Shown here: positions 8,951 to 39,005 of the stretch, piece by piece
Position numbering within the stretch: position 1 is the first letter of the stretch
Layout of the letters: each line of letters opens with the position of its first letter
DNA from: Escherichia coli
GTDB taxonomy: Bacteria; Pseudomonadota; Gammaproteobacteria; Enterobacterales; Enterobacteriaceae
Assembly: GCF_050320075.1 (NCBI RefSeq)
Contig: NZ_CP190018.1
Length of the DNA stretch: 64,000 nt
Reading direction: 5' to 3' (one strand)
Translations under genes and position numbers: made by a program
Notes under the pieces: generated by a model
What the model was told of the DNA's origin: nothing
The model's database searches: none
Seen by the model: the letters and a program-made list of their open reading frames with translations, nothing else

Positions 8951-9622
8951 ATGCAGTACCCGATTAACGAGATGTTCCAGACCCTGCAAGGTGAGGGTTA
9001 CTTTACCGGCGTCCCCGCCATTTTTATTCGTTTACAGGGATGCCCGGTTGGCTGTGCCTGGTGCGACACCAAACACACCTGGGAAAAGCTTGAGGATCGG
9101 GAAGTCTCCCTTTTCAGCATTCTGGCGAAGACCAAAGAGAGTGATAAGTGGGGGGCGGCGAGCAGTGAAGACTTGCTGGCTGTCATTGGTCGCCAGGGAT
9201 ACACCGCGCGGCATGTGGTGATTACGGGTGGTGAGCCTTGCATTCATGATTTGCTGCCACTTACTGACCTGCTCGAAAAGAACGGTTTTAGCTGCCAGAT
9301 AGAAACCAGCGGTACTCATGAAGTGCGTTGTACGCCGAATACCTGGGTCACCGTGTCGCCAAAGCTAAATATGCGTGGTGGTTATGAAGTATTGTCGCAA
9401 GCCCTGGAGCGAGCTAACGAAATCAAACACCCAGTTGGACGCGTACGTGATATCGAAGCACTGGATGAATTGCTTGCGACGCTGACCGATGATAAACCGC
9501 GAGTCATTGCACTGCAGCCGATTAGCCAAAAGGATGATGCCACACGTTTGTGCATTGAAACCTGCATTGCGCGTAATTGGCGTTTGTCGATGCAAACACA
9601 TAAATATTTAAATATTGCCTGA
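8951..9622 (+). CDS. queE: 7-carboxy-7-deazaguanine synthase (radical SAM) QueE
   Basis: 223-aa ORF with CxxxCxxC-type cluster motif (GCPVGCAWCDTKHTW); adjacent to a CRISPR array as for ygcF/queE. Confidence 0.93.
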   Translation: MQYPINEMFQTLQGEGYFTGVPAIFIRLQGCPVGCAWCDTKHTWEKLEDREVSLFSILAKTKESDKWGAASSEDLLAVIGRQGYTARHVVITGGEPCIHDLLPLTDLLEKNGFSCQIETSGTHEVRCTPNTWVTVSPKLNMRGGYEVLSQALERANEIKHPVGRVRDIEALDELLATLTDDKPRVIALQPISQKDDATRLCIETCIARNWRLSMQTHKYLNIA

Positions 9623-9869
9623 TTACACATTTATAAGCGTTATAAATGGGTGGAACCTGTAAAGACTTCTACTCATTTATATTCTTTGTCGCCTCTAAAA
9701 AACCTCCATTTTGCCCATCCTGGACTAATCATTATCATTTTCTACAAATTCTGTGGCGTTAATTTTTCGTTGGAGTGAAAATTATTACGTCGGAGTTTGG
9801 TGGATTTTAGTCGGTATAGAATTACTTTAAATATTTGGCTTTTCAATCAATGAATTAAGTGCTCTTTAA

Positions 9870-9960
9870 CATAATGGATGTGTTGTTTGTGTGTTTCTGT
9901 TAAGTTGGTAGATTGTGACTGACTTAAAAAATCAATAATTAATAATAGGTTATGTTTAGT
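9870..9960 (+). promoter_or_regulatory. CRISPR leader for array A (AT-rich, with conserved agttggtagattgt motif 58 bp before the first repeat)
   Basis: AT-rich sequence abutting the first repeat; motif agttggtagattgt at 9903..9916 is shared with the cas-adjacent leader at the same distance from repeat 1. Confidence 0.7.
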
Positions 9961-11209
9961 GAGTTCCCCGCGCCAGCGGGGATAAACCGTTTGCTGAGTG
10001 TGCATACACACTTGAACATCAGAGTTCCCCGCGCCAGCGGGGATAAACCGCTATCAGTAACAACCTGGTAAATATCGGTTTTGAGTTCCCCGCGCCAGCG
10101 GGGATAAACCGTTTTCGGGGCCATAAATGGCGCTCATTTATGTGAGTTCCCCGCGCCAGCGGGGATAAACCGGGAAAATAAACGCGTTATTCCTTGATGG
10201 GTGCGAGTTCCCCGCGCCAGCGGGGATAAACCGAGCAACAGGTATTTCATATGGCCTGCCGTGCTGAGTTCCCCGCGCCAGCGGGGATAAACCGGCCAGC
10301 GGCGCTGAGTACGACGACCTGATTAAGAGTTCCCCGCGCCAGCGGGGATAAACCGTCAATACAACAGCAATGCTGGAGCTGGAAAAAGAGTTCCCCGCGC
10401 CAGCGGGGATAAACCGTGGTGGGATAGCTGCTCTGCCAGCGTGTCGCGGAGTTCCCCGCGCCAGCGGGGATAAACCGTGGGCGCAGCTCATGTATTCCAA
10501 TAAGGATATGAGTTCCCCGCGCCAGCGGGGATAAACCGAGATTCGCGCAATGTACGGTAAAGACAGCACCGAGTTCCCCGCGCCAGCGGGGATAAACCGC
10601 CATTCTTGTTGTCGTTCATCAAGCGCAGGGGGAGTTTCCCGCGCCAGCGGGGATAAACCGTTTGTTTTGATGATTTATCAGTATATGAATTGGAGTTCCC
10701 CGCGCCAGCGGGGATAAACCGATTTTTGCGCGGCCTGCATGAAACCAGTGGCAAAGTTCCCCGCGCCAGCGGGGATAAACCGGTACCGTTGAGCAATGGT
10801 GGGTAAATGGTGCTGAGTTCCCCGCGCCAGCGGGGATAAACCGATTTAGATACGGCACACAGGAATGCGCTGGATGAGTTCCCCGCGCCAGCGGGGATAA
10901 ACCGCATGGGAGTCCAGATTACAAATTCCAGAATGGGAGTTCCCCGCGCCAGCGGGGATAAACCGCGCCAGTCTGAGGTTTTCCGGTCATACATCGTGAG
11001 TTCCCCGCGCCAGCGGGGATAAACCGACCGTTGCTACACATATGATCAGGCATGTGCCGAGTTCCCCGCGCCAGCGGGGATAAACCGGACGATGAGACGC
11101 CCTGGTGTGCCGCGTTCGTGAGTTCCCCGCGCCAGCGGGGATAAACCGCGTTTAGCTCCGCAATGTTGGATATCACTGATGAGTTCCCCGCACCAGCGGG
11201 AATAAACCA
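9961..11209 (+). CRISPR. CRISPR array A: 21 repeats of 29 bp (gagttccccgcgccagcggggataaaccg) and 20 spacers of 32 bp; terminal repeat degenerate
   Basis: exact 61-bp periodicity with repeat starts at 9961, 10022, 10083 ... 11120, 11181; variant repeats at 10632 (gagtttccc) and 10754 (aagttcc); last repeat gagttccccgcaccagcgggaataaaccac. Confidence 0.98.
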
Positions 11210-11680
11210 CCATATAACCCGTTATCTCTTTCTCAAGTTTTTATATTAGCAGTACTCGTATTAAGCAACATATCCACGTAACACCTCATGTTCAAAATAG
11301 CTCTCCATATATGAGAAGTTCACAATTATCGATACAAAAAATCAAATTTAATCAAAGTGTTATTTGTATAATCCTTAAACCGTTAAGAAATTTTAACATA
11401 TTATTTTTTTAATATTAATTAATGCCTGTTAATTTTTTCTTTAGAATAACAGTGTATTTTTTAAGCTTGTTATTCATTGATTAAGTAATAAATCTGGAAA
11501 TTTGTCTTTGTTTTGAGGCTAATGAGTGGTTTTACATAATCGCCTCTATACGCTGTTGATGAATAGTTCTTATGAATAAAGATATCCAGTTCATACTTTA
11601 AGTGAAAATTGATAAAGTGCGATTCGTATTGTCTTTTATTCTAAAGACATCGAGTGTAGTTAATATTCCTTGTAAAAACA

Positions 11681-11800
11681 GGGATAAACCGAACTAGTTA
11701 AAGTTTTTATTATGTTCCCTGCATCAGCGGGGATAAACCGGACTTGTTATCATTTTTTAAGTTGTCGAACTTATGTTCCCCGCGCCAGCGGGGATAACCA
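11681..11800 (+). CRISPR. degenerate CRISPR remnant: one 3' partial repeat plus two decayed repeats, no recognisable leader
   Basis: gggataaaccg at 11681..11691; atgttccctgcatcagcggggataaaccg at 11712..11740; atgttccccgcgccagcggggataacca at 11773..11800, with a 32-bp spacer between the last two. Confidence 0.75.
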
Positions 11801-29132: not shown

Positions 29133-29341
29133 TGCGAGCAGCATTCCTGATTTTAAACGTGAACGCCGCTGGAAGAATTATCAGGTATAGAATGGCGTTG
29201 GGTGCTTGAGGCTGTCTGGCGTTAAGCATTCGCGAGGTTCCAGATGGACAAAAGCCCCAGGCGATATTTCTATCAACCTGAGGCCAGCGTTCGAACCTAA
29301 GCAATTCGAATGTTAGTCTCTTCTTTGCAGGGAGGCAAGAC

Positions 29342-29494
29342 ATGCTGACAAAATATGCCCTTGTGGCAATCATCGTACTGTGTTGTACAGTACTGGGATT
29401 CACGCTGATGGTAGGCGACTCGTTGTGTGAGTTGAGTATCAGAGAACGTGGTATGGAGTTTAAGGCAGTTCTCGCTTACGAATCGAAGAAGTAG
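29342..29494 (+). CDS. hokX: Hok/Gef-family type I toxin peptide (50 aa), hokX-like
   Basis: [50 protein letters not shown]: N-terminal TM helix plus the Hok C-terminal pattern; below the ORF-track size cutoff; GC hairpin follows the stop. Confidence 0.8.
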
Positions 29495-29688: not shown

Positions 29689-32388
29689 ATGCGTAAATAT
29701 CCTTTAAGTTTACTGAAGGATAAAAATATTGTGACTTTTTTTGATTTCTGGGGAAAAACCCGACGCGGCGAGAAAGACGGGGGCGACGACTATCACCTTC
29801 TTTGCTGGCATTCGCTGGATGTAGCCGCGATGGGCTATTTAATGGTTAAAAGCAATTGCTTCGGGCTGACTGACTATTTTCGTCAACTAGGTTTCGCTGA
29901 TACGGAGCAGGCAGCACAATTTTTCGCCTGGCTATTGTGCTGGCACGATACTGGAAAATTTGCCCGCTCTTTTCAGCAACTTTACCTGCACCCACAACTC
30001 AAGGTTCCGGAAGGCGCAAGAAAGAATTACGAAAAGATCTCTCATTCAACGCTGGGCTACTGGCTGTGGCATCATTATTTAAGTGAATACGAAGAATTGC
30101 TTCCTTCATCTTCACTCTCTCCGCGCAAACTTAAACGGGTGATGGAGATGTGGATGCCCATGACTACCGGGCATCATGGTCGGCCCCCTGACCGTATTGA
30201 TGAACTGGATAATTTTCTGCCTGAAGACAAAGCTGCCGCACGAGATTTTCTCCTTGAAATCAAGGTACTGTTTCCGCTCATCGAGATCCCCGCATTCTGG
30301 GATGATGACGAGGGCATTGAACTTTTAAAACAACTTTCCTGGTATATCTCTGCAACCGTCGTACTCGCAGACTGGACGGGATCGTCAACGCGGTTTTTTC
30401 CACGCGTTGCACAGGCAATGGATATTAAAGATTACTGGCAGAAGGCTTTAGTTCAGGCTCAAAACGCCTTAACCGTCTTTCCTCCAAAAGCACAAACCGC
30501 GCCTTTCACCGGAATTAATACGCTGTTTCCTTTTATTGAGCACCCGACACCGTTACAGCAAAAGGTGCTGGATCTGGATATCAGCCAGCCTGGGCCACAG
30601 TTATTTATTCTGGAGGATGTGACTGGCGCAGGTAAAACAGAAGCGGCGCTTATCCTGGCCCACAGGTTGATGGCTGCGGGGAAAGCACAGGGTTTGTTTT
30701 TTGGCCTGCCAACAATGGCAACGGCCAATGCCATGTACGATCGGCTGGTAAAAACCTGGCTTGCTTTCTATTCGCCAGAATCCCGCCCCAGCCTGGTGCT
30801 GGCACACAGTGCCCGCACATTAATGGACCGCTTTAATGAATCACTCTGGTCCGGTGATTTAGTCGGGTCAGAAGAACCGGATGAACAAGCGTTCAGTCAG
30901 GGATGTGCGGCCTGGTTTGCCGACAGTAACAAGAAGGCGTTGCTGGCTGAAATTGGCGTCGGCACGCTGGATCAGGCGATGATGGCGGTGATGCCGTTTA
31001 AACATAATAATCTGCGGCTTCTGGGACTGAGTAACAAAATCCTGCTGGCTGATGAGATCCATGCCTGTGACGCTTACATGTCGTGCATTCTTGAAGGATT
31101 GATTGAGCGGCAGGCGCGTGGAGGAAACAGCGTTATTTTGCTTTCTGCCACGTTATCTCAACAGCAGCGCGACAAACTCGTTGCTGCCTTTGCGCGTGGT
31201 GCAGAGGGCCAGCAAGAAGCTCCGTTCCTGGAAAAGGATGATTACCCCTGGCTGACGCACGTTACGAAATCGGATGTGCATTCACACCGGGTAGCAACGC
31301 GCAAAGACGTTGAGCGTAGCGTGAGCGTGGGTTGGCTTCATAGCGAACAAGAATGTATTGCGCGTATCGAATCGGCAGTAAGTCAGGGGAAATGCATCGC
31401 CTGGATCCGGAATTCTGTCGATGACGCTATTAAGGTTTATCGTCAGTTGCTTGCCCGCGGCGTCATTCCTGCTTCCAGCCTTTCTCTGTTTCATAGCCGC
31501 TTTGCTTTTAGCGATCGCCAGCGAATTGAAACGGAAACGCTGGCACGCTTCGGTAAAAGTTGTAGTTTACAGAGATCATCGCAAGTCATTGTTTGTACAC
31601 AAGTAATTGAACAAAGTGTGGATATTGACCTGGACGAAATGATATCCGACCTGGCCCCTGTTGATTTGCTGATCCAACGGGCGGGGCGATTACAGCGGCA
31701 TATCCGCGATATTAATGGTCAGTTAAAGCGTGACGGAAAAGACGAGCGTTCCCCTCCTGAATTGCTGATTCTGGCCCCCGTCTGGGACGACGCTCCAGGT
31801 GACGAATGGTTCGGCAGTGCCATGCGTAACAGTGCATATGTCTATCCCGATCATGGACGAATCTGGCTGACGCAGCGTGTACTGCGTGAGCAAGGCGCGA
31901 TTCAAATGCCACACGCAGCCCGCCTTCTTATTGAATCAGTCTACGGTGAGGACGTGGTAATGCCGGAAGGATTTGCCCGCAGCGAGCAGGAACAAGTGGG
32001 CAAATATTACTGCGATCGCGCAATGGCTAAAAAGTTTGTGCTGAACTTCAGGCCCGGCTATGCCGCCAATATCAACGATTACCTCCCGGAAAAACTGTCG
32101 ACACGTCTGGCTGAGGAGTCTGTTTCCCTGTGGCTGTCTACCTGTATTGCCGGTGTGGTGAAGCCTTATGCCAACGGTGCTCACGCATGGGAAATGAGCG
32201 TTGTCAGAGTGCGTCGAAGCTGGTGGAAAAAACATCGGGATGAGTTTTCTTTACTGGAAGGGGATGCGTTCAGGCAGTGGTGCATTGAACAGCGGCAAGA
32301 GCCGGAGATGGCAAACGTGATTTTAGTCACCGATGACGAAAGTTGCGGGTATTCGGCTATGGAAGGATTGACTGGCAAGGTTGGTTGA
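29689..32388 (+). CDS. cas3: Cas3 HD-nuclease/helicase, type I-E
   Basis: 899-aa ORF; N-terminal HD domain, Walker A (EDVTGAGKTEAA), DEIH box (LLADEIHACD); heads the cas operon. Confidence 0.93.
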   Translation: MRKYPLSLLKDKNIVTFFDFWGKTRRGEKDGGDDYHLLCWHSLDVAAMGYLMVKSNCFGLTDYFRQLGFADTEQAAQFFAWLLCWHDTGKFARSFQQLYLHPQLKVPEGARKNYEKISHSTLGYWLWHHYLSEYEELLPSSSLSPRKLKRVMEMWMPMTTGHHGRPPDRIDELDNFLPEDKAAARDFLLEIKVLFPLIEIPAFWDDDEGIELLKQLSWYISATVVLADWTGSSTRFFPRVAQAMDIKDYWQKALVQAQNALTVFPPKAQTAPFTGINTLFPFIEHPTPLQQKVLDLDISQPGPQLFILEDVTGAGKTEAALILAHRLMAAGKAQGLFFGLPTMATANAMYDRLVKTWLAFYSPESRPSLVLAHSARTLMDRFNESLWSGDLVGSEEPDEQAFSQGCAAWFADSNKKALLAEIGVGTLDQAMMAVMPFKHNNLRLLGLSNKILLADEIHACDAYMSCILEGLIERQARGGNSVILLSATLSQQQRDKLVAAFARGAEGQQEAPFLEKDDYPWLTHVTKSDVHSHRVATRKDVERSVSVGWLHSEQECIARIESAVSQGKCIAWIRNSVDDAIKVYRQLLARGVIPASSLSLFHSRFAFSDRQRIETETLARFGKSCSLQRSSQVIVCTQVIEQSVDIDLDEMISDLAPVDLLIQRAGRLQRHIRDINGQLKRDGKDERSPPELLILAPVWDDAPGDEWFGSAMRNSAYVYPDHGRIWLTQRVLREQGAIQMPHAARLLIESVYGEDVVMPEGFARSEQEQVGKYYCDRAMAKKFVLNFRPGYAANINDYLPEKLSTRLAEESVSLWLSTCIAGVVKPYANGAHAWEMSVVRVRRSWWKKHRDEFSLLEGDAFRQWCIEQRQEPEMANVILVTDDESCGYSAMEGLTGKVG

Positions 32389-32485
32389 GATGCCTGCGAC
32401 AGGGCTCTCTGAATAGTTGATACACCGAAAAGGATGGAATGATGGACAACCGACCAGGGATGGTCTTTTTTACGAGAGGATGCGT

Positions 32486-34048
32486 ATGAACTCGTTTTCA
32501 CTTCTGACAACCCCGTGGTTGCCCGTTCGTTATAAAGACGGAACGACAGGCAAACTGGCGCCAGTCGATCTGGCGGATGAAAATGTTGTCGATATCGCTG
32601 CGCCGCGGGCAGATCTCCAGGGGGCGGCATGGCAGTTTTTGCTGGGACTATTACAAACCAGCTTCGCGCCAAAAGATCAACGTCGTTGGGATGATATCTG
32701 GGAAGACGGACTGGAAGCTGAAAAGCTACGGGAAGCATTGCTGTCATTAGACCATGCTTTCCAGTTCGGGCCAGATTCACCTTCATTTATGCAGGATTTT
32801 GAGGCGCTCACGGGAGATAAAGTTCCGGTCGCTTCGCTACTGCCTGAGATTCCCGGCGTTCAAACAACAAAGTTTAATAAAGACCACTTTATCAAGCGTG
32901 GTGTAACGGAACACCTGTGCCCACAGTGTTCTGCACTAGCCTTGTTCTCTCTACAGTTAAATGCGCCGTCAGGTGGCAAAGGCTATCGCACCGGCTTACG
33001 CGGCGGTGGGCCGATGACCACGCTGATTGAATTACAGGAATATCAGGGCAATCAACAAACTCCCTTGTGGCGCAAACTATGGCTCAACGTGATGCCGCAG
33101 GATGAAGCCGACTTACCGCTACCCAAAAAATTTGACGATCTGATTTTCCCCTGGCTAGGCCCGACGCGTACCAGCGAACTGGCCGGTGCGGTGGTAACCC
33201 ATGATCAGGTCAATAAACTCCAGGCGTACTGGGGAATGCCGCGGCGTATACGTATTGATTTTAATACCACGACAGTCGGCAACTGCGATATTTGCGACGA
33301 GCAGAACGACGCGCTCCTGAGCCTGATGACGACCAAAAATTATGGTGCCAATTATGCCATGTGGCAGCATCCCTTAACGCCTTACCGTGTACCACTTAAA
33401 GAGGGGGGCGAGTTTTACTCCGTTAAACCACAACCGGGCGGTTTAATCTGGCGCGACTGGTTAGGCCTTATCGAAACGGGTAAATCAGAAAACAATACGG
33501 AACTTCCCGCGCTGGTGGTGAAACTCTTTAATGCCAGCAGTCTGAAACAGGCAAAAGTGGGCCTATGGGGATTTGGTTATGATTTTGACAACATGAAAGC
33601 GCGCTGTTGGTACGAACACCATTTCCCGCTACTGCTCAATAAAAAAGAAGGCCAGATACCGAAGCTGCGGCTGGCTGCGCAAACGGCTTCACGGATTCTG
33701 AGTCTGTTACGGAGTGCATTGAAAGAAGCATGGTTCTCCGATCCAAAAGGTGCAAGGGGTGATTTCAGTTTTGTGGATATCGACTTCTGGAACAAAACTC
33801 AGCATCGCTTCCTGAGGTTAGTGCGCCAAATTGAAGAAGGTCAGGATGCGGATGAATTACTCGGCAAATGGCAAAAGGAAATTTGGTTATTCGCGCGTCA
33901 GGATTTTGACGAGCGTGTATTCACTAATCCTTATGAGCCCGTTGATTTGAAACGCGTCATGACCGCGCGCAAGAAATATTTTACAACATCGGCGGAGAAG
34001 CAAAGTGCTAAAGCCGCCAGGGAGAAAAAGCAGGAGGCTGCTGAATGA
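32486..34048 (+). CDS. cse1: Cse1/CasA (Cas8e) large Cascade subunit; start taken at MNSFSLLTTPWLP (ORF opens at 32417)
   Basis: position between cas3 and cse2; about 520 aa; N-terminus aligns by eye with the CasA N-terminal pattern. Confidence 0.85.
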   Translation: MNSFSLLTTPWLPVRYKDGTTGKLAPVDLADENVVDIAAPRADLQGAAWQFLLGLLQTSFAPKDQRRWDDIWEDGLEAEKLREALLSLDHAFQFGPDSPSFMQDFEALTGDKVPVASLLPEIPGVQTTKFNKDHFIKRGVTEHLCPQCSALALFSLQLNAPSGGKGYRTGLRGGGPMTTLIELQEYQGNQQTPLWRKLWLNVMPQDEADLPLPKKFDDLIFPWLGPTRTSELAGAVVTHDQVNKLQAYWGMPRRIRIDFNTTTVGNCDICDEQNDALLSLMTTKNYGANYAMWQHPLTPYRVPLKEGGEFYSVKPQPGGLIWRDWLGLIETGKSENNTELPALVVKLFNASSLKQAKVGLWGFGYDFDNMKARCWYEHHFPLLLNKKEGQIPKLRLAAQTASRILSLLRSALKEAWFSDPKGARGDFSFVDIDFWNKTQHRFLRLVRQIEEGQDADELLGKWQKEIWLFARQDFDERVFTNPYEPVDLKRVMTARKKYFTTSAEKQSAKAAREKKQEAAE

Positions 34049-34581
34049 GTATTGTAAAAGAGGAGCACAAAGCCACGCTGCGTAAATGGCACGAAGAGTT
34101 GCAGGAAAAACGCGGCAATCGTGCCAGTCTGCGGCGTAGCACAACGGTTAATGATGTTTGTCTGTCAGAAGGGTTTCGTTCTCTGCTGATGCAGACCCAC
34201 ACTTTGTGGAAAATTGAAGCACAAGAGTGGCGTTTTACCGCACTGGCGCTGGTCGCCGCAGTTAGCGCCAATGTTAAAGCTATTGATGAACGGCAGCCTT
34301 TTGCCGCGCAGCTGGCGGCGGTAATGTCGGAGGGGCGTTTTACTCGCCTGTCGGCAGTAAAAACGCCTGATGATTTACTGCGTCAGTTACGTCGCGCGGT
34401 CAAATTATTAAATGGTTCCGTCAATCTTATCTCTTTGGCAGAAGATATTTTCCGCTGGTGCCAGGAGAGCGACGACCTGCTCAATCATCACCGCCGCCAG
34501 CAGCGGCCAACAGAATTTATCCGTATCCGCTGGGCGCTGGAATATTACCAGGCTGGCGACGCCGATAACGAACAAAATTAA
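34045..34581 (+). CDS. cse2: Cse2/CasB small Cascade subunit
   Basis: 178-aa ORF overlapping the cse1 stop by 4 bp; Arg-rich helical protein in the expected operon position. Confidence 0.85.
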   Translation: MSIVKEEHKATLRKWHEELQEKRGNRASLRRSTTVNDVCLSEGFRSLLMQTHTLWKIEAQEWRFTALALVAAVSANVKAIDERQPFAAQLAAVMSEGRFTRLSAVKTPDDLLRQLRRAVKLLNGSVNLISLAEDIFRWCQESDDLLNHHRRQQRPTEFIRIRWALEYYQAGDADNEQN

Positions 34582-34595
34582 TAAAGGACTATCTC

Positions 34596-35651
34596 ATGAC
34601 GACATTTATTCAGCTTCATTTGTTAACCGCTTACCCTGCTGCCAACCTTAACCGTGATGACACCGGTGCGCCAAAAACTGTGGTACTGGGTGGAGCAACG
34701 CGTCTGCGCGTTTCCTCACAAAGTCTGAAACGTGCGTGGCGCACTTCTGCACTTTTTGAACAGGCACTGGCGGGCCATATTGGTATTCGCAGTGGGCGTA
34801 TTGCGCGTGAGGCGGCAACTATCCTGATTGAGAAAGGCATCGAAGAGAAAAAAGCCATCGAATGGGCGGCAAAAATTGCGGATTATCTTGGGAAAGCTAA
34901 AAACGACAAAAAACCAAAAGATCCGCTCACTAACGCCGAAACTGAACAGCTAGTCCATATCAGCCCGGCAGAATTTGACGCCGTAAAAGCGCTGGCCCAT
35001 CAACTGGCCGAAGAAAAGCGCGCGCCAAAAGAGGAAGATCTCGCTTTGTTACGTAAAGATCGCATGGCGGTAGATATCGCTATGTTTGGTCGTATGCTGG
35101 CGAATAAACCCGAATTTAATGTTGAAGCCGCCTGCCAGGTCGCGCATGCATTTGGTGTCAGTGAAACGATTGTCGAAGATGATTTTTTCACCGCCGTTGA
35201 TGATTTGCGCCAGGCTTCTGAAGATGCCGGTGCCGGGCATCTTGGTGAAACCGGATTCGGTTCTGCGCTGTTCTACACCTATATCTGCATCGATAAAGAT
35301 CTGCTGGTCGAAAACCTCGGCGGTGACGAAGCGTTAGCTAATCAGACCTTGCGCGCCTTTACGGAAGCCGCACTTAAAGTCTCCCCAACCGGCAAACAGA
35401 ACAGCTTTGCCAGCCGTGCCTACGCCTCCTGGGCGCTGGCAGAAAAAGGCACTGAACAACCACGCTCTCTGGCGGCGGCTTTCTATGAACCCATTAATGG
35501 CACCCGGCAGTTAGATGTGGCGGTGCAGCGTATTACAACGCTTCGCGAAAATATGAATACGGTCTATGAACAGAAGACCGAATGCGCAAGCTTTGACGTG
35601 ATGAACAAACAGGGAAGCATGAAGGACGTGCTGGACTTTATCTGCGCGTAA
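34596..35651 (+). CDS. cas7: Cas7/CasC Cascade backbone subunit
   Basis: 351-aa ORF MTTFIQLHLLTAYPAANLNRDDTG... (RAMP-like N-terminus); operon position. Confidence 0.88.
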   Translation: MTTFIQLHLLTAYPAANLNRDDTGAPKTVVLGGATRLRVSSQSLKRAWRTSALFEQALAGHIGIRSGRIAREAATILIEKGIEEKKAIEWAAKIADYLGKAKNDKKPKDPLTNAETEQLVHISPAEFDAVKALAHQLAEEKRAPKEEDLALLRKDRMAVDIAMFGRMLANKPEFNVEAACQVAHAFGVSETIVEDDFFTAVDDLRQASEDAGAGHLGETGFGSALFYTYICIDKDLLVENLGGDEALANQTLRAFTEAALKVSPTGKQNSFASRAYASWALAEKGTEQPRSLAAAFYEPINGTRQLDVAVQRITTLRENMNTVYEQKTECASFDVMNKQGSMKDVLDFICA

Positions 35652-35661
35652 GGGGCGGCTA

Positions 35662-36408
35662 ATGAGCCAATATTTGATTTTTCAGCTTCATGGGCCAATG
35701 GCATCCTGGGGCGTCGATGCCCCCGGCGAAGTGCGTCATACCCATGAACTGCCTTCGCGCTCAGCATTGCTGGGGCTGCTGGCTGCCGGGGTAGGGATTC
35801 GGCGTGATGATACCGAACGATTAAACGCGTTTAACAGCCACTATTCACTGGTGGTTTGCGCCAGCCGTAACCCGCGCTGGGCACGGGATTATCACACGGT
35901 CCAGATGCCAAAAGAGGTGCGTAAAGCGCGTTATTTCAGCCGTCGCGAAGAGTTGAGCGCCCCTGATCTTCTGAGCGCGATTATCTCCCGGCGCGACTAC
36001 TACACCGATGCCTGGTGGATGGTGGCGGTGGCAACAACCCCCGATGCGCCTTACAGGCTTGAACAGTTGCAGGACGGTTTACGTCATCCGGTTTTTCCGC
36101 TTTATCTGGGGCGAAAAAGTCATCCGCTGGCGTTACCACTTGCGCCGTTACTGCTCGAAGGCAACGCGTCTGATGTCTTACGTAACGCATACCAACAGTA
36201 TCAGGATAGTTTCCGCGAACTGAAAGTCTCACTCCCGAAACTTCAGGATGAATGCTGGTGGGAAGGGGAACACGACGGCCTGGTCGCGAGCAAAATATTA
36301 CGTCGCCGGGATGTTCCTTTAAATCGTCAGCAGTGGCTGTTTGGGGAACGCACCATCAATCAGGGGCCGTGGCTCAGCAAGGAGGAACCATGTACCTCTC
36401 AAGAATAA
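35662..36408 (+). CDS. cas5: Cas5/CasD Cascade subunit
   Basis: 248-aa ORF MSQYLIFQLHGPMASWG... (Cas5e N-terminal pattern); operon position. Confidence 0.88.
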   Translation: MSQYLIFQLHGPMASWGVDAPGEVRHTHELPSRSALLGLLAAGVGIRRDDTERLNAFNSHYSLVVCASRNPRWARDYHTVQMPKEVRKARYFSRREELSAPDLLSAIISRRDYYTDAWWMVAVATTPDAPYRLEQLQDGLRHPVFPLYLGRKSHPLALPLAPLLLEGNASDVLRNAYQQYQDSFRELKVSLPKLQDECWWEGEHDGLVASKILRRRDVPLNRQQWLFGERTINQGPWLSKEEPCTSQE

Positions 36409-37036
36409 CCTTACATACCGGCCAGCTTTCGCCTGCGCAGTTGCTGCATCTGGTGGATCGCGGTGAATATGTAATGCATCAGTGGCTGTGGGATCTTTTT
36501 CCTGGCGGCAAAGAAAGGCAATTTCTTTATCGTCGGGAAGAACTCCAGGGGGCGTTTCGCTTTTTTGTCCTGTCGCAGGAACGCCCGGCGGAAAGTGATA
36601 TTTTCACCATCGAATGCCGACCATTTGCGCCAGAGTTGCGTACCGGACAATCCCTTTGTTTCAACCTGCGGGCGAATCCAACAATTTGTAAAGCGGGCAA
36701 ACGCCACGACTTGCTGATGGAGGCGAAACGGCAGGTGAGGGGGCAGGTGGAAGGAAGTGATGTCTGGTTGCATCAACAACAGGCGGCGCTGGACTGGCTG
36801 GCAGCGCAGGGGGAAAGAAGCGGTTTTACACTACTGGATACCTCGGTCGATGCCTACCGACAACAGCAACTGCGGCGGGAAAACTCCCGGCAACTGATCC
36901 AGTTCAGTAGCGTGGATTATACGGGGATGCTTACGGTCACCGATCCTGGGTTATTTCTGCAACGTCTGAGCCAGGGGTATGGCAAAAGCCGCGCGTTCGG
37001 CTGTGGTCTGATGCTGATCAAACCCGGAGCAGAGGC

Positions 37037-37040
<4 letters not shown>
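36390..37040 (+). CDS. cas6e: Cas6e/CasE pre-crRNA endoribonuclease; start at MYLSRITL preceded by aggagg
   Basis: 216 aa; the MYLS start matches the Cas6e N-terminus as I recall it; C-terminal G-rich loop GYGKSRAFGCGLMLI; overlaps the cas5 stop. Confidence 0.88.
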
Positions 37041-38250
<1,210 letters not shown>

Positions 38251-38346
38251 GTTATCTGTTCTTTAAAAATAAGGAAATGTTTTAATTTAGTTGGTAGATT
38301 GTTGATGCGGAATAAATTTGTTTAAAAACAGTTATGTATGCTTAGT
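38251..38346 (+). promoter_or_regulatory. CRISPR leader for the cas-adjacent array B (AT-rich; agttggtagattgt motif at 38289..38302)
   Basis: AT-rich region between cas2 and the first repeat; shares motif and 58-bp spacing with the leader of array A. Confidence 0.75.
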
Positions 38347-38985
38347 GTGTTCCCCGCGTCAGCGGGGATAAACCGACAATCAGATCACGATCGATGCCTC
38401 GCGTGAGGTGTTCCCCGCGTCAGCGGGGATAAACCGATTTTCGCAGCGGGTAACCGCGCCCGGCGATCGTGTTCCCCGCGTCAGCGGGGATAAACCGTTT
38501 ATGTGGAGTATCAGTGCCTGGGTGGAAAGGTGTTCCCCGCGTCAGCGGGGATAAACCGTGGGGCTGAGCATGGCTAAACAACCGAGGCGCGTGTTCCCCG
38601 CGTCAGCGGGGATAAACCGGTCAACTGGCACCACAGGATGATGGCGGCGAAGTGTTCCCCGCGCCAGCGGGGATAAACCGCAGGTCGACCGACTGGAGGC
38701 GGAGATTGTCGGGTGTTCCCCGCGCCAGCGGGGATAAACCGTGTTGTTTTTCTGCCGGATTAACGCGGTGCGAGTGTTCCCCGCGCCAGCGGGGATAAAC
38801 CGTTGTCGGGCTTGTTCGGCGCGGGTTGTTAACTGTGTTCCCCGCGCCAGCGGGGATAAACCGCCAGCGAAGGACTTGCTCGTGTGGTTAAAGCCGTGTT
38901 CCCCGCGTCAGCGGGGATAAACCGGACGCACTGGATGCGATGATGGACATCACTTGGAGTTCCCCGCCCCTGCGGTAGAACTCCC
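38347..38985 (+). CRISPR. CRISPR array B: 11 repeats of 29 bp (gtgttccccgcg[t/c]cagcggggataaaccg), 10 spacers of 32 bp; terminal repeat degenerate
   Basis: 61-bp periodicity with repeat starts at 38347, 38408 ... 38896, 38957; last repeat gagttccccgcccctgcggtagaactccc. Confidence 0.98.
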
Positions 38986-39005
38986 AGCTCTCATTTTCAA
39001 ACCCA

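Follow-up and report, generated by a model that had tools for sequence, protein, structure and literature searches.

The best described counterpart of the element reported here is the leader adjoining the cas genes of Escherichia coli K-12, in which an IHF site occupies positions -9..-35 and a second region, at -44..-59, is conserved among type I-E organisms (Yoganand et al. 2016, PMC5224486). Replacement of -46..-57 abolishes array expansion, the super-shift formed with Cas1-2 and IHF, and integration in vitro, with IHF binding little changed and bending unaffected, whereas replacement of -34..-45 or -58..-69 is without those effects, these neighbouring 12-bp blocks being dispensable. Among three 4-bp sub-blocks of the sensitive segment, only -50..-53 ('GTGG') is essential, and this is the integrase anchoring site (PMC5224486). 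The bend introduced by IHF is described as placing upstream elements at -50..-55 in contact with junction-bound Cas1-Cas2, which also contacts -1..-4 of the leader (review, PMC10011333), and a structural preprint describes for type I-E a single IHF that recruits a motif about 50 bp upstream of the repeat (bioRxiv 10.1101/2023.05.26.542337). Earlier work, as cited in PMC5224486, found up to 60 bp of leader to be essential for acquisition, and for leader2.3 of BL21-AI, the type found at array 1 below, the first 40-60 bp were required according to Yosef et al., as cited in PMC3737337.

The window analysed here is a stretch of E. coli chromosome of 64,000 nucleotides, in which the order is queE, leader, array 1, remnant, ygcE, cysJIH, hok/sok, cas operon, leader, array 2 and iap. 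This order was established from open reading frames, NCBIfam matches and comparison with K-12, with the reading-frame survey covering about 5-42 kb, and the cysJIH frames, which lie where expected, were assigned from their location and from the corresponding genes of K-12 and related genomes. Array 1 is annotated as a CRISPR between queE and ygcE in near-identical genomes, and array 2 sits between cas2e and iap in matching genomes, with iap on the minus strand. The names CRISPR2.3/leader2.3, CRISPR2.2, CRISPR2.1, 'leader-A', 'CRISPR-A' and 'cas-EO' are those of Diez-Villasenor et al. 2013 (PMC3737337), and in these terms array 2 combines a 'leader-A' with 'CRISPR-A' repeats (GTGTTCCCC...) and O157:H7-type 'cas-EO' genes. 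The features are listed below, with leader positions counted back from repeat 1.

8951-9622: queE, upstream of the array 1 leader.
9892..9895, plus strand: TGTT in the array 1 leader, positions -69..-66.
9903..9916, plus strand: upstream leader motif of array 1 (leader2.3), positions -58..-45, exact match to AGTTGGTAGATTGT.
9930..9942, plus strand: IHF-like site of array 1, AATCAATAATTAA, positions -31..-19, agreeing in 12/13 bases with the consensus WATCAANNNNTTR; a sequence match only.
9956..9960, plus strand: junction element TTAGT of array 1, positions -5..-1.
9961..11209, plus strand: array 1 (CRISPR2.3), 21 repeats with a 61-bp period and 20 spacers, final repeat degenerate.
11663..11800, plus strand: CRISPR2.2 remnant, with degenerate repeats at 11663-11691, 11712-11740 and 11773-11800.
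29200-29357: sok antitoxin RNA (Rfam RF01794, 111.7 bits), between cysH and cas3.
29689-38250: cas3, cse1, cse2, cas7, cas5, cas6e, cas1 and cas2.
37037-37960, plus strand: cas1e, 924 nt, 307 aa; NCBIfam TIGR03638, 380.9 bits, above cut-off.
37957-38250, plus strand: cas2e, 294 nt, 97 aa; NCBIfam TIGR01873, 131.6 bits, above cut-off.
38278..38281, plus strand: TGTT in the array 2 leader, positions -69..-66, followed by TTTAAT at -66..-61 (5/6 to TATAAT).
38289..38302, plus strand: upstream leader motif of array 2 (leader2.1, 'leader-A' type), positions -58..-45, exact match to AGTTGGTAGATTGT.
38311..38323, plus strand: IHF-like site of array 2, AATAAATTTGTTT, positions -36..-24, agreeing in 11/13 bases with WATCAANNNNTTR; again a match in sequence only.
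38342..38346, plus strand: junction element TTAGT of array 2, positions -5..-1.
38347..38986 (end approximate), plus strand: array 2 (CRISPR2.1), 10 intact repeats, a degenerate terminal repeat at about 38958-38986, and 10 spacers.

Repeat 1 begins at 9961 in array 1 (GAGTTCCCC...) and at 38347 in array 2 (GTGTTCCCC...). The repeats of both arrays follow a 61-bp period and take the form GWGTTCCCCGCG[C/T]CAGCGGGGATAAACCG, and the array 2 leader is 96 bp long. Relative to K-12 the repeat types are swapped, the cas-adjacent array of the window being GTG-type and its CRISPR2.3 GAG-type, with the reverse arrangement in K-12. The array 2 repeats (38347-38924) are further arranged in blocks, with the loop GCGTCAGC in repeats 1-5 and 10 and GCGCCAGC in repeats 6-9; since each new repeat copies repeat 1, this pattern could preserve the history of successive additions at the leader end. 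Queries of 229 bp around the leaders are matched in 4,515 of 5,426 complete E. coli genomes for array 1 and in 2,692 of 5,426 for array 2, and strains YZLc1-3 and Ec-U3 carry both arrays in a form identical to the window. An Rfam scan of the whole window returned sok as the sole match, with none overlapping either leader; at the hok/sok locus a Hok/Gef gene is annotated in related genomes, and the equivalent place in K-12 has only the small RNA sokX.

The earlier note had reported one 14-mer shared by the two leaders at the same distance from the first repeat, and an exact search agrees, locating AGTTGGTAGATTGT at 9903-9916 and 38289-38302, each 58 bp upstream of repeat 1, with no third copy in the 64-kb window at up to 2 mismatches. 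The common distance follows directly from the coordinates, because repeat 1 begins at 9961 and 38347. The block has 6 G in its 14 bases and a G+C content of 43%, and its core at -53..-50 reads GTAG in both leaders (9908-9911 and 38294-38297), the same as in K-12 leader2.3. Alignment with the experimentally defined type I-E leader, which had been proposed as a check, places the block inside the published functional segment -46..-57 with its core at -53..-50; the block also falls within the repeat-proximal 60 bp of the leader. Our numbering agrees with that of PMC5224486, because the GTGG of K-12 is counted at -53..-50. The 14-mer is very probably the upstream recognition motif of enterobacterial type I-E leaders, that is, the integrase anchoring site. 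The motif is already described in the literature, and the earlier note was correct in picking it out anew. The proposal that it is a leader element directing integration is borne out in that the 14-mer is the published upstream Cas1-Cas2 motif; its association with IHF binding is not, as the block is not an IHF site and the IHF-like sites lie downstream. The CRISPR2.2 remnant indeed lacks the motif, as had been claimed: the region upstream of it (11210-11680) contains no copy of the 13-mer GTTGGTAGATTGT at up to 3 mismatches, and the remnant is likewise without the motif in 6 of 8 other E. coli genomes, which are all those in which the scan detected a remnant.

Compared with the anchoring site of the K-12 CRISPR2.1 leader (PMC5224486), the window leaders share the position of the block (-57..-45) and of its core (-53..-50), the spacing to repeat 1, the arrangement in which the upstream block precedes a putative IHF site, the junction and the repeat, and the kind of integrase, Cas1e-Cas2e. 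In K-12 leader2.1 the place of the window block is taken by GGTTGGTGGGTTGT, and the 13-mers GTTGGTAGATTGT (window) and GTTGGTGGGTTGT (K-12 leader2.1) agree at 11/13 bases, differing at -51 and -49. The published mutants were studied in K-12 leader-T with the K-12 integrase; the window has the core GTAG in place of GTGG and a cas-EO integrase whose Cas1 and Cas2 are 85% identical to those of K-12. K-12 leader2.3, at the queE-ygcE locus that holds array 1 in the window, has the identical 14-mer (14/14) at the identical position. Over the last 80 nt the window leader2.3 has A at -38, A at -26 and T at -1 where K-12 leader2.3 has G, T and A, respectively; the array 1 repeats begin GAG, not GTG, and the array 1 hexamer at -66..-61 (9895-9900) is TTCTGT, not the TACTAT of the common, K-12 leader2.3 type. 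Should this hexamer act as a -10 box, it may drive weaker transcription of array 1 in the window lineage, whose leader2.3 is a minority variant (331 of 4,515 genomes at least 99% identical). Array 2 with its leader and GTG-type repeats is of the O157:H7-type variant (PMC3737337), as are the cas genes, with no substantive difference from it; the 229-bp query spanning cas2, leader and repeat 1 is 95.6% identical to O157:H7 ATCC 43894, where the motif lies at the same place.

The two leaders are homologous, and the fair test is therefore whether the block is kept better than its flanks. Compared ungapped and in the same register, the leaders are identical at 14/14 positions in the block (-58..-45), at 13/34 positions between -44 and -11, at 12/42 positions between -100 and -59, and at 9/10 positions between -10 and -1 (TATGTTTAGT in array 1 against TATGCTTAGT in array 2). 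The longest run common to both leaders in any register is the 14-nt block itself, and the block is better conserved than the leader sequence surrounding it in the two arrays. Upstream of the leaders, short collinear nucleotide matches link 9771-9869, ahead of leader2.3, to 38173-38266, which comprises the 3' end of cas2 and the start of leader-A. These matches are TGGAGTGAAAAT/TGGGGTGAAAAT, GGTGGATTT and AATCAATGAATTAAGTGCTCTTTAA/AATCAATAAGTTATCTGTTCTTTAA, the last pair spanning the cas2 stop codon, and they hint that CRISPR2.3 and its leader may have descended from a duplicated unit of cas2, leader and array. A tblastn search for a cas2 pseudogene upstream of leader2.3, with Cas2 and Cas1 as queries, returned nothing significant (best E = 0.63).

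Within E. coli, the sequence GTTGGT[A/G]G[A/G]TTGT begins at -57 in 18/18 leaders from 9 genomes covering both cas variants. Across species, one genome per species was scanned with the pattern GTTGGTNGNTTGT-N{30,60}-GTTCCCCGCG, which returned 19 stretches; since this pattern required the block, the scan gives the spacing where the block exists, not the share of type I-E leaders without it. Sixteen of the 19 are enterobacterial leaders adjoining genuine type I-E repeats, from Escherichia, Citrobacter, Salmonella, Klebsiella, Phytobacter, Pseudocitrobacter, Intestinirhabdus and other Enterobacteriaceae, and the gap between block and repeat in these is exactly 46 nt, as in the window, in 14, with 45 nt in one and 47 nt in one. 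The other three matches, two in Streptomyces and one in a Clostridia MAG, were taken as chance, having other gap lengths and no type I-E repeat. Over 17 distinct leaders the mean information is 1.9 bits in the block, compared with 0.5-1.1 bits in the region between block and repeat. In PSS-12, an E. coli of K-12 type, CRISPR2.3 is split by an IS421 transposase gene and has IS1A after it, and the annotation gives cas1e a frameshift; the block is retained in both of its leaders.

The best match to the IHF consensus in the K-12 cas-adjacent leader is AAAAAATGCTTTA at -35..-23, which at 11/13 is no better than the matches in the window leaders and lies almost where the array 2 match does, and agreement at 11/13 is common in A/T-rich leader DNA. 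The IHF-like match of array 1 and the K-12 cas-adjacent match both lie within the published IHF footprint, -9..-35. At the junction, TTAG at -5..-2 is invariant in the 17 distinct enterobacterial leaders, a stretch lying outside the search pattern. The earlier description of both leaders as ending in 'tatgt(n)ttagt' was right about the common terminal TTAGT; the pattern as a whole is inaccurate, the actual ends being TATGTTTAGT and TATGCTTAGT, which align ungapped. Window leaders end TTAGT and K-12 leaders TTAGA, and a dependence of base -1 on the cas variant was considered and ruled out by other cas-EO genomes: in O157:H7 ATCC 43894, Z22-6, MS6192, 1604D011 and EC21Z-048, leader2.3 ends TTTAGA and the cas-adjacent leader TTAGT. 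NDM1 has TTTACA at the junction, and E. albertii shows a mismatch at -1 between its leaders, as in the cas-EO genomes. Farther upstream, TGTT at -69..-66, likewise outside the search pattern, is kept across the 17 distinct leaders with 2.0, 2.0, 1.5 and 1.7 bits; it probably supplies the TG of an extended -10 promoter for the pre-crRNA and would lie outside the integration signal.

The arrangement of these elements fits the mechanism proposed for type I-E integration, in which IHF would bind the A/T-rich site at about -35..-9 and bend the leader sharply. The bend would fold the block (about -57..-45) onto the Cas1-Cas2-prespacer complex at the leader-repeat junction, and this second contact would stabilise the complex at repeat 1 only, with new spacers being inserted leader-proximally. 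Since the block has to reach the integrase by way of the bend, its spacing from the repeat would be under constraint, and not its sequence alone. The values for binding, bending and the requirement for integration are taken from the literature and all derive from the K-12 cas-adjacent leader; we infer that the same mechanism would operate at both window arrays with the cas-EO integrase. Types I-F and I-C share the logic that bending by a host factor brings distant leader motifs to the integrase and marks repeat 1 (bioRxiv 10.1101/2023.05.26.542337). They have two IHF sites and Cas2-bound inverted-repeat motifs up to 100-200 bp upstream, whereas each window leader has one IHF-like site and one block about 50 bp upstream.

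The integrase genes of the window are intact in length, with Cas1 and Cas2 both full length, each 85% identical to its K-12 counterpart, and encoded by genes of the same lengths as annotated in related genomes. E. coli also carries ihfA and ihfB. With the cis elements, among them the putative IHF sites, and full-length cas1 and cas2 present, it is plausible that both arrays are competent for acquisition, as the earlier note had suggested. Correct insertion of spacers has been reported at both leader2.1 and leader2.3 arrays, and O157-type Cas1-Cas2 expressed from a plasmid acquires spacers (PMC3737337); in its native state the E. coli system is normally kept silent by H-NS (PMC10011333). In a multicopy assay under positive selection, spacers were still acquired by a reporter that had only the proximal 43 bp of leader-A, the array 2 type, and thus no block (PMC3737337). 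Integration there does not depend absolutely on the block, which in leader-A may raise the efficiency or fidelity of integration rather than being strictly needed. Among relatives of array 2, Ecol_545 (1379-2078 of the compared segment) has all the array 2 spacers together with two extra repeat-spacer units at the leader end. These units weakly suggest polarised growth at the array 2 leader type, the alternative being their loss in other lineages. Other relatives of array 2 differ by single internal spacers, including one spacer missing from the window. In six relatives of array 1 no addition at the leader end was seen, all differences being internal gains or losses.

Conservation of the block might have a cause other than recognition by the integrase, and transcription is the most evident candidate. 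The block could be kept mainly as a part of the pre-crRNA promoter, comprising the start and the initially transcribed region, and not as an integration signal. Just after the invariant TG (-69/-68), positions -66..-61 hold a hexamer resembling a -10 box, which reads TTTAAT in array 2, TACATT in K-12 leader2.1 and TACTAT in K-12 leader2.3; with this placement the pre-crRNA would start near -54, inside the block. In line with this, the CRISPR-1 start is placed about 50 nt upstream of repeat 1 (PMC10011333), and the -10 box of leader2.1 is contained within 69 bp of leader and lies outside 43 bp (PMC3737337). However, in vitro integration with purified components, a reaction free of transcription, is lost when the block is mutated (PMC5224486), and the likely start of CRISPR-2 is about 95 nt upstream (PMC10011333), yet the distance from block to repeat is unchanged. 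Array 1, moreover, joins the poor hexamer TTCTGT to a perfect block, promoter scans of both leaders give no site overlapping the block, and conservation of every base between genera is not usual for start-site regions. In these scans no sigma-70 -35/-10 pair overlaps the block, the only nearby site being CTGACT-16-AATAAT at 9919-9946, downstream of it. A mainly promoter-related role is improbable on this evidence, although part of the conservation could still serve transcription, since the block overlaps the likely pre-crRNA start in cas-adjacent leaders.

It is more improbable still that the block is bound by some nucleoid protein or regulator (for example IHF at a second site, H-NS or LeuO) in place of Cas1-Cas2. 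Two 11/13 matches to the IHF consensus do overlap the block on the minus strand of array 2 (-52..-40 and -59..-47), but they depend on flanking bases specific to array 2 and have no equivalent in array 1. H-NS prefers A/T-rich sites, and the block is more G-rich than the sites that it favours. Control of E. coli CRISPR-cas promoters by H-NS has been reported (PMC10011333); mutation of -46..-57, on the other hand, has a minor effect on IHF binding and leaves bending intact, whereas the Cas1-2-dependent super-shift is lost (PMC5224486). It is scarcely credible, finally, that the leaders share the block only through common ancestry or by gene conversion, without any function. Homology of the leaders makes some shared sequence expected, and the weak collinear matches reach upstream into the cas2 3' end; the flanks, however, have decayed to about 30-40% identity against 14/14 in the block, which persists, its spacing unchanged, in seven or more named genera with differing leader surroundings. 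Nor is the block freely variable, being kept in 18/18 leaders of 9 E. coli genomes, and published mutations of it abolish integration (PMC5224486).

With the 14-mer taken as the integrase anchoring site, a combined role can also be envisaged, in which the anchoring block of cas-adjacent leaders would itself be the pre-crRNA start site, with the integration complex and transcription competing for the same DNA. Such a double role is unlikely; if true, spacer uptake and crRNA production would be coupled or mutually exclusive, and the extreme conservation of the block would reflect double duty. The identification of the 14-mer as the anchoring site is significant mainly for annotation and leaves the understanding of adaptation unchanged, an experimentally validated cis element having been picked out from raw sequence alone. 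It is of use in choosing a strain or array for acquisition experiments and in CRISPR typing of E. coli, and for the organism it means that both arrays keep the full published set of leader elements, the IHF sites as putative ones, beside full-length cas1 and cas2.
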